From a bacterium (GTDB lineage Bacteria > Patescibacteriota > Minisyncoccia > UBA6257 > UBA9933), in contig JAJYHZ010000001.1 in assembly GCA_021796335.1 (NCBI GenBank), positions 80,360 to 144,359 on the forward strand: a DNA stretch of 64,000 nucleotides. Direction: 5' to 3'. Shown piece by piece: positions 2,191-50,582 of the stretch; position 1 is the stretch's first letter, and every line of letters starts with the position of its first letter. The notes below the pieces were generated by a model. That model saw only the letters and a program-made list of their open reading frames with translations, was not told the origin of the DNA and ran no database searches. Made by a program: the position numbers and the translations under genes.

Positions 2191-2199
2191 ATTTTTGTG

Positions 2200-2271
2200 T
2201 GCCTCGGGAGGGAATTGAACCCCCGACGCCAGCCTCTTCAGGGCTGCGCTCTACCACTGAGCTACCGAGGC
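2200..2271 (-). tRNA. tRNA-Phe (anticodon GAA)
   Basis: reverse complement folds into a cloverleaf: acceptor GCCTCGG/CCGAGGC, D-arm GCTCAGTGGTAGAGC, anticodon loop CUGAAGA, T-loop TTCAATT; no CCA encoded. Confidence 0.9.
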
Positions 2272-25874: not shown

Positions 25875-25964
25875 GGAGGCGTCGCATAGTGGCCGAGTGC
25901 GCTCGCTTGGAAAGCGGGTAAGGGGTAAAACCCTTCGTGAGTTCGAATCTCACCGCCTCCGCCA
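25875..25964 (+). tRNA. tRNA-Ser (anticodon GGA), CCA encoded
   Basis: acceptor GGAGGCG/CGCCTCC, anticodon loop TTGGAAA, long variable arm, T-loop TTCGAAT, 3' GCCA. Confidence 0.9.
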
Positions 25965-27461
25965 AGTTTTACATTCAGCGAAATTGAAAGATGTTGCCTC
26001 GGCGCAAAGCGCCTCGGCATGGTATTTTTCCGCAATTTTGAAGGCATTTTTGAAATCCAAAACCAAAGTGCGGTCGGCAATGCGGAAGTTCGAACCAATC
26101 TTTTTGAGAAAATCCCGAATCCTTTCGGGATTTTCTTGTTGAGCGTATTTTTCGGCTTGGTTGGCATCTTTTAGAAAGGCAATGGCAAGTTCGAACCGAT
26201 TATTGCTCTTGCGCCCAAAAGCGGTAATTTTTTCTTCCAAATTTTTTTTGGCGAGAATGAGCTTGTGCTTTTTAGCGGTATATTCCGCTTGCGACAAGTT
26301 GCCGTCCAGTTGTAAATCAAGCAAGCGATCAAGTTTTGTTTCTATTTCTACAAGCTCATTTCTCGCTTTTTGGGCGAAAGAGCTTTCCGCTTGGGCAATT
26401 TTCATTTTTTCGTTTTCAAAATAGTTGATTGAAGCGTTTGCCCAAGCGGAAGACAAAGAAACTTTTTTGATTTCCTCTTTTATTTGAGAAGTGATGGCGT
26501 CCTCTCTCACATATCTCTGCGAACAAGGATTCTTCCGTTTGGTACACCGCAAGTAGTTATGACCTTTTTGCGTTTCGGTGGTAATGAAACAACCACATTC
26601 TCCACAACGGAAAAATCCTCTAAAAATGTATGGTTTGAGTTTTGGCGATTTCGGTTTGCTCTTGTTCGCCATTACTTCTTGAACGGAATCAAAAAGTTTC
26701 TTTGTGATAATCGGTTCATGCTTTCCGTCATACAATTCGCCGTTATATTCAATCATTCCGTAATAGATTTTATTCTTGAGCATATACTGATAATTTGAGA
26801 CGGAAAGCATTTTGCCTTTCTTGCCAACCAAGCCCAAGGAATTGATAATCTTTCGGATTTGAGCGAGGGGGTATTCGCCAGTCGCATACATTTCAAAAGC
26901 CCGCTTGATATACTTTGCTTTTTCCTTATCAACAATAATTTTTCTTTGGTTTTTATCGTTCACATAACCCAGTGGCGCCCAAGCGGGCCATATTCCATTT
27001 CGCAATTTCTGGCGAATACCCCTCTTTATATTTTCCGAAAGATTATCCACATAATATTTTGATTGCCCAAAAGCGATAGACAACATAAATTTTCCTTGCG
27101 GTGTCGGATCAAACCAAAAAGTAGGAAATTTTAGCGTGGTTATTTTTCCAGTATCCACCAAGTAAATTATTCTCCCGCCGTCTATGGAATTGCGAGCCAA
27201 TCTATCGGGGTGCCACGCTAAAATTCCCTCGGCTTCATTTTTCTCTATGCTTGCCACCATTTCGTTAAAAATCTCTCGCCCCGGCTCTTTGGCGGTTTTA
27301 CTTTCCACAAATTCACGGACGATATTTAGTCCCTCTTTTTTGGCATATTCCCGCAACTCAAACATTTGTGCCTCAATACTCAAAACCTGCCTTTCGGGTT
27401 CGTCCGTGGATTTGCGGGCATAGAGAAAAATCTTTTTGGTTTGTAAATTTATATTATCCAT
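25950..27461 (-). CDS. large serine recombinase (resolvase/invertase catalytic domain + recombinase domain + zinc ribbon)
   Basis: N-terminal YARKSTDE...QVLSIEAQ catalytic-Ser region, central recombinase domain, CGECGCF...LRCTKRK zinc ribbon; 503 aa; last 5 codons overlap tRNA-Ser. Confidence 0.85.
   Translation of the reverse strand: MDNINLQTKKIFLYARKSTDEPERQVLSIEAQMFELREYAKKEGLNIVREFVESKTAKEPGREIFNEMVASIEKNEAEGILAWHPDRLARNSIDGGRIIYLVDTGKITTLKFPTFWFDPTPQGKFMLSIAFGQSKYYVDNLSENIKRGIRQKLRNGIWPAWAPLGYVNDKNQRKIIVDKEKAKYIKRAFEMYATGEYPLAQIRKIINSLGLVGKKGKMLSVSNYQYMLKNKIYYGMIEYNGELYDGKHEPIITKKLFDSVQEVMANKSKPKSPKLKPYIFRGFFRCGECGCFITTETQKGHNYLRCTKRKNPCSQRYVREDAITSQIKEEIKKVSLSSAWANASINYFENEKMKIAQAESSFAQKARNELVEIETKLDRLLDLQLDGNLSQAEYTAKKHKLILAKKNLEEKITAFGRKSNNRFELAIAFLKDANQAEKYAQQENPERIRDFLKKIGSNFRIADRTLVLDFKNAFKIAEKYHAEALCAEATSFNFAECKTWRRR
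25962..26091 (+). repeat. R1 copy A (130 bp), abutting the tRNA-Ser 3' end; encodes the recombinase C-terminal about 43 aa
   Basis: 100% identical to the reverse complement of 27577..27706. Confidence 0.9.
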
Positions 27462-33780: not shown

Positions 33781-33960
33781 TTAACTGGAGATGATTTAAA
33801 ATAAAAAGCCGCATAGCGGCTTTATAAATGGAAGTCTTAGCTCTCTCCATCGGAGAGAGCCGGGGATTACTTCCACTCTAACCGGAAAGATTCCTGTACC
33901 CCGTAGGGAATCTCTCCAAACATAAAAATTCAAGGTGCTGTTACTGTAATTTTATCAAGC
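33781..33960 (+). promoter_or_regulatory. hairpin-rich leader upstream of pheS (possible cis-regulatory RNA)
   Basis: consecutive perfect stems: GCCGC-ATA-GCGGC, GGAAGT..(GCTCTCTC-CATCG-GAGAGAGC)..ACTTCC, GATTCC-N12-GGAATC. Confidence 0.3.
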
Positions 33961-33989: not shown

Positions 33990-35171
33990 TTGCGATTATT
34001 CGGAAATTATGATAAATTATTCACTAATATGCCTCAGAATATTATTGTAAATAAAGACGAAGAAATCCGCCTGAAAAAAGAACTTGAAAAACGGAATGAT
34101 TTCGAAGCCTTAAGGATTAAAAGGTATTTAAATATGCCCGATTTGTCGCGAACTGAAGATAGTCCCATCCATGAGATCGTTCAACGAATAATCGCTCATC
34201 CCTATTTCAATGGCCTGGATATTATTCAGACTCCGGAAATCGTTCCGGCCAATATTAGTTTCGATTTATTTGATTTTCCCGCTGATCATCCGGCTCGCAG
34301 CAAATCCGACACCTATTACATTGATGATAAAAATATCTTGCGCACCCACACAACCGTAATGTGGTATTATTACTTGCGGGAAAATGACATCAAGAATCGC
34401 GTCGCGAACAATCAGCCTGTCGGCTGTTTCAGTTTCGGCAAGGTCTACCGCAAAGATGAAATTGATCGGCGCCACATGAACGTTTTTCATCAAATTGACG
34501 GATGGTATCTTTCTCCGAAGCCGCTGAAAACCATAACCCAGAAAGATTTGGAAGATGCGCTTGGAAATATTGCGTCTGCGGTATTCGGTCCGAACGTTAA
34601 ATATCGCCTCAATAATGATACGTTTCCGTACACAGATCCTTCTCTTGAAATGGAAGTCGAAATCGGCGGAAGATGGGTCGAAGTTGTCGGTTGTGGAGTT
34701 GTTAAAGGCAGCGTTTTGGAAAAACTCGGCGTGGATTCCAAAAATTACACCGGCTGGGCGTTCGGTTTCGGGCTGGAAAGATTGGCTATTAGCAGTATGG
34801 ATTTGCCCGATATCAGATTACTGTGGTCAGAAGATCCGCGCGTTACCAAACAGCTTAAACTCGGAAAGAAATTTGTTGAAGTCAGCAAATATCCGCCGAT
34901 TACTCGCGATATTTCTTTTGTCGTTGATAGTGATTTCATACCGAACGATTATTTTGATTTAATCCGCGAAATCGGAGGAAATTTGGTTGAGCAGGTAGAG
35001 CTTTTAGATAAATATGAAAATAAGGAAAAGTTTGGCCCTGGAAAAATAAGTTATACCTACAGAATTGTCTACAGAAGTCCAGAACGAACCCTTAAGTCGG
35101 AAGAAGTGGATCCGCTGCAGGAAAATTTATATAAGCAAACGGGGAAAGTTTACAACGCGCAAATCAGGTAA
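33990..35171 (+). CDS. pheS: phenylalanine--tRNA ligase, monomeric type: PheS catalytic core fused to a C-terminal FDX-ACB anticodon-binding domain
   Basis: class II motifs (FRPSYFPFTEPS-like, GWAFGFGLERL) plus C-terminal RDISFVVDSDF...GKISYTYRIVYRSPERTLKSEEV resembling the PheT/mitochondrial FDX-ACB domain; no pheT follows. Confidence 0.8.
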   Translation: MRLFGNYDKLFTNMPQNIIVNKDEEIRLKKELEKRNDFEALRIKRYLNMPDLSRTEDSPIHEIVQRIIAHPYFNGLDIIQTPEIVPANISFDLFDFPADHPARSKSDTYYIDDKNILRTHTTVMWYYYLRENDIKNRVANNQPVGCFSFGKVYRKDEIDRRHMNVFHQIDGWYLSPKPLKTITQKDLEDALGNIASAVFGPNVKYRLNNDTFPYTDPSLEMEVEIGGRWVEVVGCGVVKGSVLEKLGVDSKNYTGWAFGFGLERLAISSMDLPDIRLLWSEDPRVTKQLKLGKKFVEVSKYPPITRDISFVVDSDFIPNDYFDLIREIGGNLVEQVELLDKYENKEKFGPGKISYTYRIVYRSPERTLKSEEVDPLQENLYKQTGKVYNAQIR

Positions 35172-35282: not shown

Positions 35283-35648
35283 ATGTCTGAAGAATCATTA
35301 GGCCCAATTTCGGATACAAATTCCAATCAGGAAAAAGAAGATGCGCTTGAAGAAGTTTTGAAAGGCGTGAATACCGGTCTAGCGCAGGCAAAAACAAAGC
35401 TTGTCGATTTGAAAGCCATTCTGCTCAATCTTTTGGAATCGAACCTTTTCGCTTCGGAAGCCACTTATTACGAAAATTACGGGGAAGCCATTGAAAATAT
35501 TGAAAAAAATATCGAAAGAACGGAAAAAATTATAAGCGATATGGAAACCGTAAAATCGAAACTGGAGGTATCTGTAGAAGAATTGAAAAAGCTTAATGGA
35601 GAGATGGTTAATCTTCTCGATCAGTATAAATCCGGACAAGCGCGATGA
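35283..35648 (+). CDS. hypothetical coiled-coil protein (121 aa)
   Basis: intact ORF. Confidence 0.4.
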   Translation: MSEESLGPISDTNSNQEKEDALEEVLKGVNTGLAQAKTKLVDLKAILLNLLESNLFASEATYYENYGEAIENIEKNIERTEKIISDMETVKSKLEVSVEELKKLNGEMVNLLDQYKSGQAR

Positions 35649-46900: not shown

Positions 46901-47189
46901 TAATCCTATGATAACTGTTGTAAAACGGAAGCGCGGATAAATCGGCAAATTTCGTGTTGGCCGGTTGTCCGCCACGAGGCGGATTTTTGTTTCTAAAAGA
47001 AACAACCCCGAGTAAAATCAAAGGGTTAATCCAAAATCAAAAACTGAAACGATAGTATTGACAGAATCATTGAAAATTTAATATTTATTCCATGCATAAC
47101 ATAAAATGTATGTGTGGAAGTCAACAATCATAACAAAATACAAATAAGAATTTTGTTTTCTGGGTAAAATAATCCCAAAAGAGGATTTC

Positions 47190-50365
<3,176 letters not shown>

Positions 50366-50467
50366 AAAATTTTCTTTTGGGTCTTTTACCCGGAAAGCAA
50401 AATTCTTATTTGTTTAGGTTTATCCAATACATAATTTATTATGCTGTTGGATTAAAATTTTCGTTTA

Positions 50468-50582
50468 CCGGTGTTTAACTCGGGTGTGGCCCACTGCTTC
50501 CCATTTCGAACAGAATAGTGAAAGCGCTTGAGCCTCATGATACTAACTGCTTCGGCGGTTGGGAAAGTAGGGTACGCCGGTA
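50468..50582 (+). rRNA. 5S ribosomal RNA
   Basis: CCCATTTCGAACAGAATAGTGAAA...GGGAAAGTAGG 5S-like blocks, about 115 nt, about 100 nt after the 23S. Confidence 0.8.

Follow-up and report, generated by a model that had tools for sequence, protein, structure and literature searches.

Phenylalanyl-tRNA synthetase (PheRS) is the textbook case of an aminoacyl-tRNA synthetase (aaRS) that depends on an (αβ)2 heterotetramer and on a dedicated editing site. A gene at positions 33990..35171 of the bacterial DNA analysed here (a stretch of 64,000 nt from contig JAJYHZ010000001.1, referred to below as the window) raises the question of whether a bacterium can dispense with both and charge its tRNA-Phe with a single polypeptide. 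The window comes from an ultra-small bacterium of the class Paceibacteria, with relatives in the Patescibacteria, the candidate phyla radiation (CPR); it has a GC content of ~38% and carries bacterial 23S and 5S rRNA genes, seven tRNA genes, including one for tRNA-Phe(GAA), and open reading frames (ORFs) of the size of rpoB and rpoC. The product of the gene is confirmed to have the single-chain, mitochondrial-type PheRS architecture. Judging from its sequence, it is very probably a functional Phe-tRNA-Phe ligase, and it is probably the sole PheRS of the organism, replacing the (αβ)2 enzyme. We infer that the protein is specific for Phe, monomeric and devoid of editing, and that pheST is absent genome-wide.

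A single polypeptide with mitochondrial-type architecture

The ORF listing of the window includes, on the plus strand at 33990..35171, a 393-aa ORF with a TTG start, which an earlier note on this DNA had described as a monomeric mitochondrial-type PheRS. The ORF is present as described there, but the protein is probably 380 aa long: ~120 close homologs are annotated with lengths of 378-380 aa and begin with 'MPQNI...', so that the ATG at 34029, rather than the TTG at 33990, is most likely the true start. The tblastn alignments of relatives also start at 34029, and one homolog (P0001, 380 aa) is 100% identical to the product of 34029..35171. The gene and its parts are the following.

34029..35171, plus strand: coding sequence of the single-chain PheRS, 380 aa and stop codon, with the start supported by homologs
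33990..34028, plus strand: possible N-terminal extension of 13 codons with a TTG start, probably untranslated, absent from annotated homologs
34146..34853, plus strand: class IIc catalytic core (PF01409), holding motifs 1-3 and the Phe pocket, Pfam E = 5.3e-56
34884..35168, plus strand: C-terminal ferredoxin-fold anticodon-binding domain (FDX-ACB), of the B8 type of PheT, Pfam E = 2.8e-23

The earlier note had read the protein as a class II catalytic core joined to a C-terminal FDX-ACB domain, and had named a C-terminus lacking FDX-ACB similarity, together with a full-length pheT elsewhere, as what would speak against its reading. In the Pfam search, both domains were matched far over their gathering scores, PF01409 (tRNA-synt_2d) at residues 53-288 of 393 (E = 5.3e-56) and PF03147 (FDX-ACB) at residues 299-393 (E = 2.8e-23), whereas the N-terminal coiled-coil domain of bacterial PheS (PF02912) was not found in the protein. 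The FDX-ACB region aligns to positions 693-798 of the PheT model TIGR00472, and the score against the canonical PheS model TIGR00468 is 167, below the cutoff of 237.45. According to the motif table, the segments DHPAR(S), LRTHTT, RxDxxDxxHxxxFHQxDG, FPYTDPS and GWAFGFGLERLA agree with E. coli PheS and with the organellar enzymes, and the core motif columns (in 380-aa numbering, DHPAR; R141, D143, H149, FHQ153-155 and D157; F199-P200-Y201-T202; W243-A244-F245-G246...ER251) are invariant in 46 CPR and organellar sequences.

The kinship with the mitochondrial enzyme that the earlier note had supposed is borne out over the whole chain. By sequence, the PDB entries closest to it are chains of human mitochondrial PheRS (E = 1.5e-57), with an alignment that extends to residue 381 (3cmq), whereas bacterial PheS reaches 1e-36 at best and PheT matches the last ~100 residues alone. 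An AlphaFold2 model built on a 46-sequence alignment has a pLDDT of 92.3 and a pTM of 0.88, with the FDX-ACB domain modelled as beta-alpha-beta-beta-alpha at pLDDT >90. When compared by Foldseek, the model fits the closed form of human mitochondrial PheRS (3cmq/5mgh) with a TM score of 0.78 and a root-mean-square deviation of ~3 Å over ~388 columns, as against TM 0.59 for the open, tRNA-bound form (3tup) and ~0.54, with coverage of the core only, for canonical PheS chains. A better fit to the closed than to the open form is to be expected if the anticodon-binding domain is mobile.

Mitochondrial and other organellar PheRS (human FARS2, yeast Msf1; TIGR00469; 3cmq, 3tup) consist, in the same order, of a short N-terminal region, a class IIc core and FDX-ACB, and are 35-48% identical to the window protein, with the ATP, Phe and motif 1-3 residues common to both; like them, the window protein lacks the coiled-coil N-domain and the B1-B7 modules of the beta subunit, and so has no editing site. 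Unlike them, it is bacterial and chromosomal and has no targeting presequence, it lacks an insertion by which alignments to the organellar enzymes are broken in two, it shares with other bacterial single-chain forms a distinct N-terminal helical segment ('RxDFEAxRIxRYLxMPDLSR'), it has FPY in place of the organellar FPF, and its relatives pair with a mini-protein that corresponds to the B2 module of PheT. With canonical (alpha-beta)2 PheRS, the window protein has in common a homologous catalytic core (32% identity to E. coli PheS) and an FDX-ACB domain homologous to the B8 module of PheT, here fused to the alpha chain, whereas the N-terminal coiled-coil, B1, B3/B4 (editing), B5, B6/B7 and an adjacent pheT are all lacking.

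As a housekeeping PheRS in one chain, the enzyme would activate Phe with ATP in its class IIc core and transfer it to A76 of tRNA-Phe, and FDX-ACB, by analogy with the human mitochondrial enzyme, would read the GAA anticodon after a closed-to-open swing that docks the tRNA. Because there is no B3/B4 editing site of a beta subunit, Tyr-tRNA-Phe would not be cleared in cis and would escape proofreading there; mitochondrial PheRS is likewise without editing of Tyr-tRNA-Phe (PMC3275996).

Distribution of the single-chain form and its B2 partner

The single-chain enzyme had been called rare in bacteria, a misleading claim that is true only outside the CPR. A homolog search at E ≤ 1e-10 yields >7,000 clusters (90% identity) of the single-chain form, and a pattern scan with one genome per GTDB species shows that at least 424 species genomes encode a relative; these are all Patescibacteria, for the most part Paceibacteria, and include Doudna-, Nomura-, Zambryski-, Yanofsky- and Brennerbacteria and Minisyncoccia/Parcubacteria. 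The best 120 homologs are 75-82% identical to the window protein and all come from Patescibacteria, and all named homologs belong to metagenome-assembled genomes (MAGs) of Patescibacteria. In an exhaustive search of 1.84 billion representatives at 50% identity, the Paceibacteria family is essentially one full-length cluster; the next relatives beyond it, at 35-48% identity, are eukaryotic organellar PheRS (Schizosaccharomyces Msf1, oomycetes, stramenopiles and plants) and a few other bacterial single-chain proteins, one of them from an Oligoflexia MAG. Two more of these next relatives (P0124 and P0129) have Trp at sites that are Gly in all the others (e.g. SWWKVYR, IWVERIAM), and are therefore read as probable Gracilibacteria/Absconditabacteria genes, in which UGA would encode Gly (code 25), translated with the wrong table (code 4).

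A rough bootstrapped neighbour-joining tree was built from 237 core columns and rooted on E. coli PheS; because it has one outgroup and employs a distance method, it is to be taken as indicative. In this tree, the Paceibacteria, Oligoflexia-type and code-25-type proteins form a bacterial clade with 100% support, which falls apart from the organellar enzymes, themselves a separate and poorly resolved group. The family SrmL ('PheS-related mystery ligase') branches next to the bacterial single-chain clade as its sister (67% bootstrap). The earlier note had proposed a comparison with monomeric PheRS of mitochondria and spirochaetes, wrongly as to the latter, given that spirochaete PheRS is an archaeal-type heterotetramer.

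Some further unusual homologs were seen. In an uncultured 635-kb megaphage (LR745206.1), the product of 613857..614882 can be aligned, at 28.6% identity, with 89% of the length of the single-chain PheRS, its FDX-ACB region among it, and may represent a phage-borne single-chain PheRS-like gene. In the nematode entries of Globodera rostochiensis (P0146/P0298, 872-873 aa), an AlaRS core (PF01411) lies N-terminal to a complete organellar-type PheRS (PF01409 and PF03147), which is either a real fusion or a merge of gene models.

In many relatives, the single-chain PheRS is paired or fused with a homolog of the B2 OB-fold of PheT, a feature that the earlier note had overlooked. The related-locus set, comprising the window and 84 loci (1.36 Mb), was searched by tblastn with E. 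coli PheT and PheS and subjected to ORF analysis. The B2 homolog (E. coli residues ~40-150, 31-43% identity) lies directly upstream of PheRS. It is a separate gene for ~140 aa on the same strand in 28/84 loci (L005-L028 and others; for example, 9465..9896 in L028 and 9610..10038 in L086), where the B2 ORF ends 11-222 nt before the start of the PheRS match (665 nt in L026), and it is fused in frame to PheRS in 2/84 loci (L063/L064, 9587..11131); three database homologs (P0015, P0029 and P0039; 504-506 aa) are also B2-PheRS fusions. The upstream gene is present in all of the closest relatives of the window protein (11/11), and an adjacent B2 is absent from 55/85 sequences when the window is counted with the 84 loci. 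A homolog search with one B2 protein gave 800 matches, of which the best 120 are without exception stand-alone proteins of 128-173 aa that carry PF01588 only, with no full PheT among these 120. Many B2 homologs share contigs with single-chain PheRS genes (contigs of 181160, 811108, 135517 and 48960 nt were found in both searches), and NCBI locus tags of B2 and PheRS genes are adjacent (NTX98_00445/00440, Q8N81_04585/04590). JGI labels the B2 mini-proteins 'PheRS beta chain', which could make genomes appear to have a canonical beta subunit.

The window organism is an exception among its close relatives: a B2 homolog was not found in the 64 kb, and none of the best 120 B2 homologs lies on contigs of this organism (420,705 bp or roughly 64 kb). 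In the relatives, B2 probably raises the non-specific affinity for tRNA, whether it acts in trans or is fused to the enzyme. In many relatives it would be the only other surviving piece of PheT, and the window organism would have lost even this piece.

Single-chain PheRS as a probable replacement of pheST

The earlier note had observed that no pheT adjoins the gene and had taken the single chain to replace the (alpha-beta)2 enzyme. The first observation holds for the entire window, in which neither pheT nor a second pheS was found (by tblastn, E. coli PheT and PheS match this gene alone, and the assignment of the large ORFs gave no pheT either); replacement itself is not established by this, given that the window covers 64 kb of the genome and that some Paceibacteria keep pheST. 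Neither a full-length pheT nor a further pheS was found by tblastn across the 84 related loci. The single-chain PheRS is single-copy in every locus examined and, in one relative, has housekeeping neighbours (gyrB, greA, and AspRS/LysRS-type and SerRS genes). A Paceibacteria MAG with adjacent canonical pheT and pheS, PMX_810_sub (PMC10936435, PMC9600506), has in its whole-genome table exactly one PF01409, one PF03147 and no single-chain protein, with B3/4, CLM, B5 and FDX-ACB as the domains of its pheT product. The supplements of PMC7137472, PMC12281837, PMC12239599 and PMC11188291 hold no PheRS entries. Five core-only representatives tried as seeds for canonical CPR PheS/PheT were rejected: P0251 turned out to be a eukaryotic organellar PheRS in truncated form, and P0269, P0234, P0211 and P0239 are of the same eukaryotic organellar kind.

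PheRS, at 67-82% identity, is also far more conserved than neighbouring housekeeping genes and the genomic background. In the same genome pairs (window vs. L021, L057, L070 etc.), PheRS is 68-77% identical, compared to 48% for IF-2, 49% for RbfA, 45% for FtsW and 39% for MreB, an excess that suggests either strong constraint or recent lateral spread within Paceibacteria. In this class, the single-chain form would most likely have displaced pheS/pheT. Viral carriage as a vehicle of transfer was tested and set aside: no close relative of the window PheRS was found in IMG/VR, and a phage collection gave only distant matches. CPR genomes are ~1 Mb or less, and a redundant 380-aa synthetase under stronger conservation than IF-2 would come as a surprise in a genome so reduced.

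Several observations weigh against the single chain being the housekeeping, and sole, PheRS. The protein misses the cutoff of the mitochondrial model pheS_mito (TIGR00469; 240.3 bits vs. 258.35), and its score against SrmL (NF051887; 251.5 vs. a cutoff of 300) is marginally above the pheS_mito score. The CPR family as a whole straddles the TIGR00469 cutoff: P0027 scores 234.3, and P0121, the 50%-identity cluster representative of the window family, is over it at 264.3 bits. Orthologs of the two other aaRS genes of the window occur in 0/80 related flanks, and because these genes are as absent there as pheST, the absence of pheST from the flanks is weak evidence. Canonical pheST may sit outside the 64-kb window (420,705 bp is the stated length of the source contig), and it persists in some Paceibacteria. 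A Gracilibacteria proteome table lists 'pheT' proteins, although this label is ambiguous because the same one is given to B2-only proteins. Finally, a related single-chain protein is encoded in an Oligoflexia MAG, which presumably has a normal PheRS in addition, so that the fold alone is no proof of a housekeeping role.

Much of this would be accounted for if canonical pheS and pheT lay elsewhere in the genome and the single-chain protein were an additional PheRS, or else a tRNA-synthetase-like ligase serving some other purpose, which is what the NCBI name of the sister family SrmL implies. We consider such an accessory paralog unlikely. SrmL proteins are also single chains with a PheS-like core and an FDX-ACB-like C-terminus; their model aligns over residues 72-383 of the window protein and is nominally its top NCBIfam match, and the sister position of SrmL in the tree, the Oligoflexia relative, the persistence of pheST in some Paceibacteria and the restriction of the analysis to 64 kb all fit with this explanation. 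However, true SrmL members (P0196, P0217 and P0235) score 359-387, whereas the window protein stays below the cutoff and, at three substrate-site motifs where SrmL has GNPGRS, HPYTxxG and GLALGMG, keeps the PheRS-type versions DHPARS, FPYTDPS and GWAFGFG; SrmL identity was rejected on these grounds. A literature search on SrmL or 'mystery ligase' found nothing. Also at odds with an accessory paralog are the passing of the pheS_mito cutoff by the family representative P0121, the one genome table in which canonical pheST comes with no single-chain copy, and the oddity of a redundant, highly conserved enzyme in a ~1 Mb genome.

A housekeeping PheRS might instead be a two-component enzyme, with the B2 'mini-beta' protein as a tRNA-binding helper encoded elsewhere in the genome. 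The upstream position of B2 in 28/84 loci, including those of the 11 closest relatives, the fusions (L063, L064, P0015, P0029 and P0039), the shared contigs and the adjacent locus tags all speak for such a partnership; for the window organism we regard it as distinctly unlikely, given the lack of B2 both in the window and on the contigs of the organism among the best 120 B2 homologs, and given the 55/85 sequences without an adjacent B2. B2 is, moreover, dispensable for aminoacylation in E. coli PheRS, according to Roy & Ibba 2006 as cited in PMC5370408. A shift of specificity to Tyr, m-Tyr or another aromatic amino acid appears highly improbable. It is suggested by two CPR-typical changes in the pocket, FPF to FPY and FHQxEG to FHQxDG, both conserved across the CPR family, and by the lack of an editing domain. 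Yet human cytosolic PheRS α natively has Tyr at the first of these sites ('NPYTEPS', 3l4g_A), and Asp for Glu in 'FHQxEG' is found in several organellar-type members as well, so that, as far as such comparisons go, the FPY and Asp changes do not argue for new chemistry and a changed specificity on their account was rejected. The pocket size of E. coli PheS is set by Thr251 and Ala294 (PMC3275996), and the window protein keeps Thr and Ala at the equivalent positions; it also keeps its anticodon-binding domain, and the window still encodes a normal tRNA-Phe(GAA). A single-chain, Phe-specific enzyme acting as the only PheRS thus continues to be the preferred reading.

Wider meaning and other features of the window

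In a review of the three PheRS types, the monomer is confined to mitochondria (PMC3275996); this organellar form is the sole accepted exception to the heterotetramer with its editing site. The single-chain organellar-type PheRS is known as a kind of enzyme; what seems undescribed is its probable housekeeping role in a bacterial radiation as large as this one, and its pairing with the B2 mini-protein. No paper that links monomeric or mitochondrial-type PheRS to the CPR was found in the searchable literature, and the NCBI name of the CPR single-chain proteins is 'hypothetical protein'.

A broader proposition, which we put forward as speculative and rather doubtful, is that Paceibacteria (and apparently the code-25 Gracilibacteria/Absconditabacteria as well) run an editing-less single-chain PheRS that displaced pheST, perhaps, in view of its excess conservation, by lateral spread, often keeping B2 alone, and that these enzymes, together with the SrmL and Oligoflexia forms, are bacterial kin, and possibly donors, of mitochondrial and plastid PheRS, the alpha-B8 fusion having arisen before or outside eukaryotes. 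If a large bacterial radiation did rely on the editing-less single-chain form, the organellar architecture would not be peculiar to eukaryotes, CPR bacteria would have to tolerate or otherwise handle mischarging with Tyr and m-Tyr, and the origin of mitochondrial PheRS would become testable with bacterial relatives. Completeness estimates and annotation would be affected, too, with pheT, which we take to be a GTDB bac120 marker, systematically absent and B2-only proteins mislabelled. The interest of the system would rise if a genome-wide anti-correlation with pheT and the link to the origin of organellar PheRS hold.

The 317-nt spacer upstream of the PheRS gene contains, where the closest relatives have B2, a terminator-like hairpin and two strong hairpins; these elements and the presumed substrate are located as follows.

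33805..33823, unstranded: terminator-like GC hairpin, from a terminator scan
33829..33918, unstranded: two strong hairpins, possibly a 5' leader or small RNA; minimum free energy -39.7 kcal/mol, z = -4.4 on the plus strand and z = -4.05 on the minus strand
2199..2271, minus strand: tRNA-Phe (GAA), the presumed substrate, from ARAGORN and Rfam

The hairpin at 33805..33823 has the appearance of a terminator of the upstream transcription unit, in which case PheRS would not be co-transcribed with the upstream 257-aa gene. The element at 33829..33918 matches no Rfam family at threshold, is present only in loci of the same organism and is not repeated in the window; with no Rfam match and no conservation in relatives, a known riboswitch, T-box or small RNA was rejected. 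The tRNA-Phe has G1-C72, A73 and a standard cloverleaf, and its CCA is not encoded. On the other side of the PheRS gene, the downstream gene (35283..35648, 121 aa), which the earlier note had called unrelated, did not match any family significantly.

Among the ORFs of at least 500 aa, Pfam assigned PPDK, a GAF/7TM protein, a serine recombinase, a class I aaRS and GroEL, whereas the ORFs of 1080 and 1202 aa were assigned to RpoB and RpoC by size and position. The 23S rRNA match (47183..50269) spans 3,087 nt compared to the 2,925 positions of the model, and the ~160 nt in excess could reflect an insertion in the gene. The 5S rRNA gene (50467..50582) follows it, and the upstream side has no 16S rRNA gene, which points to unlinked rRNA genes. 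The serine recombinase, a 503-aa protein of the large type (Resolvase, Recombinase and Zn-ribbon) encoded on the minus strand at 25950..27461, overlaps the 3' end of tRNA-Ser(GGA) (25875..25964), an arrangement that suggests a mobile element integrated beside this tRNA gene.

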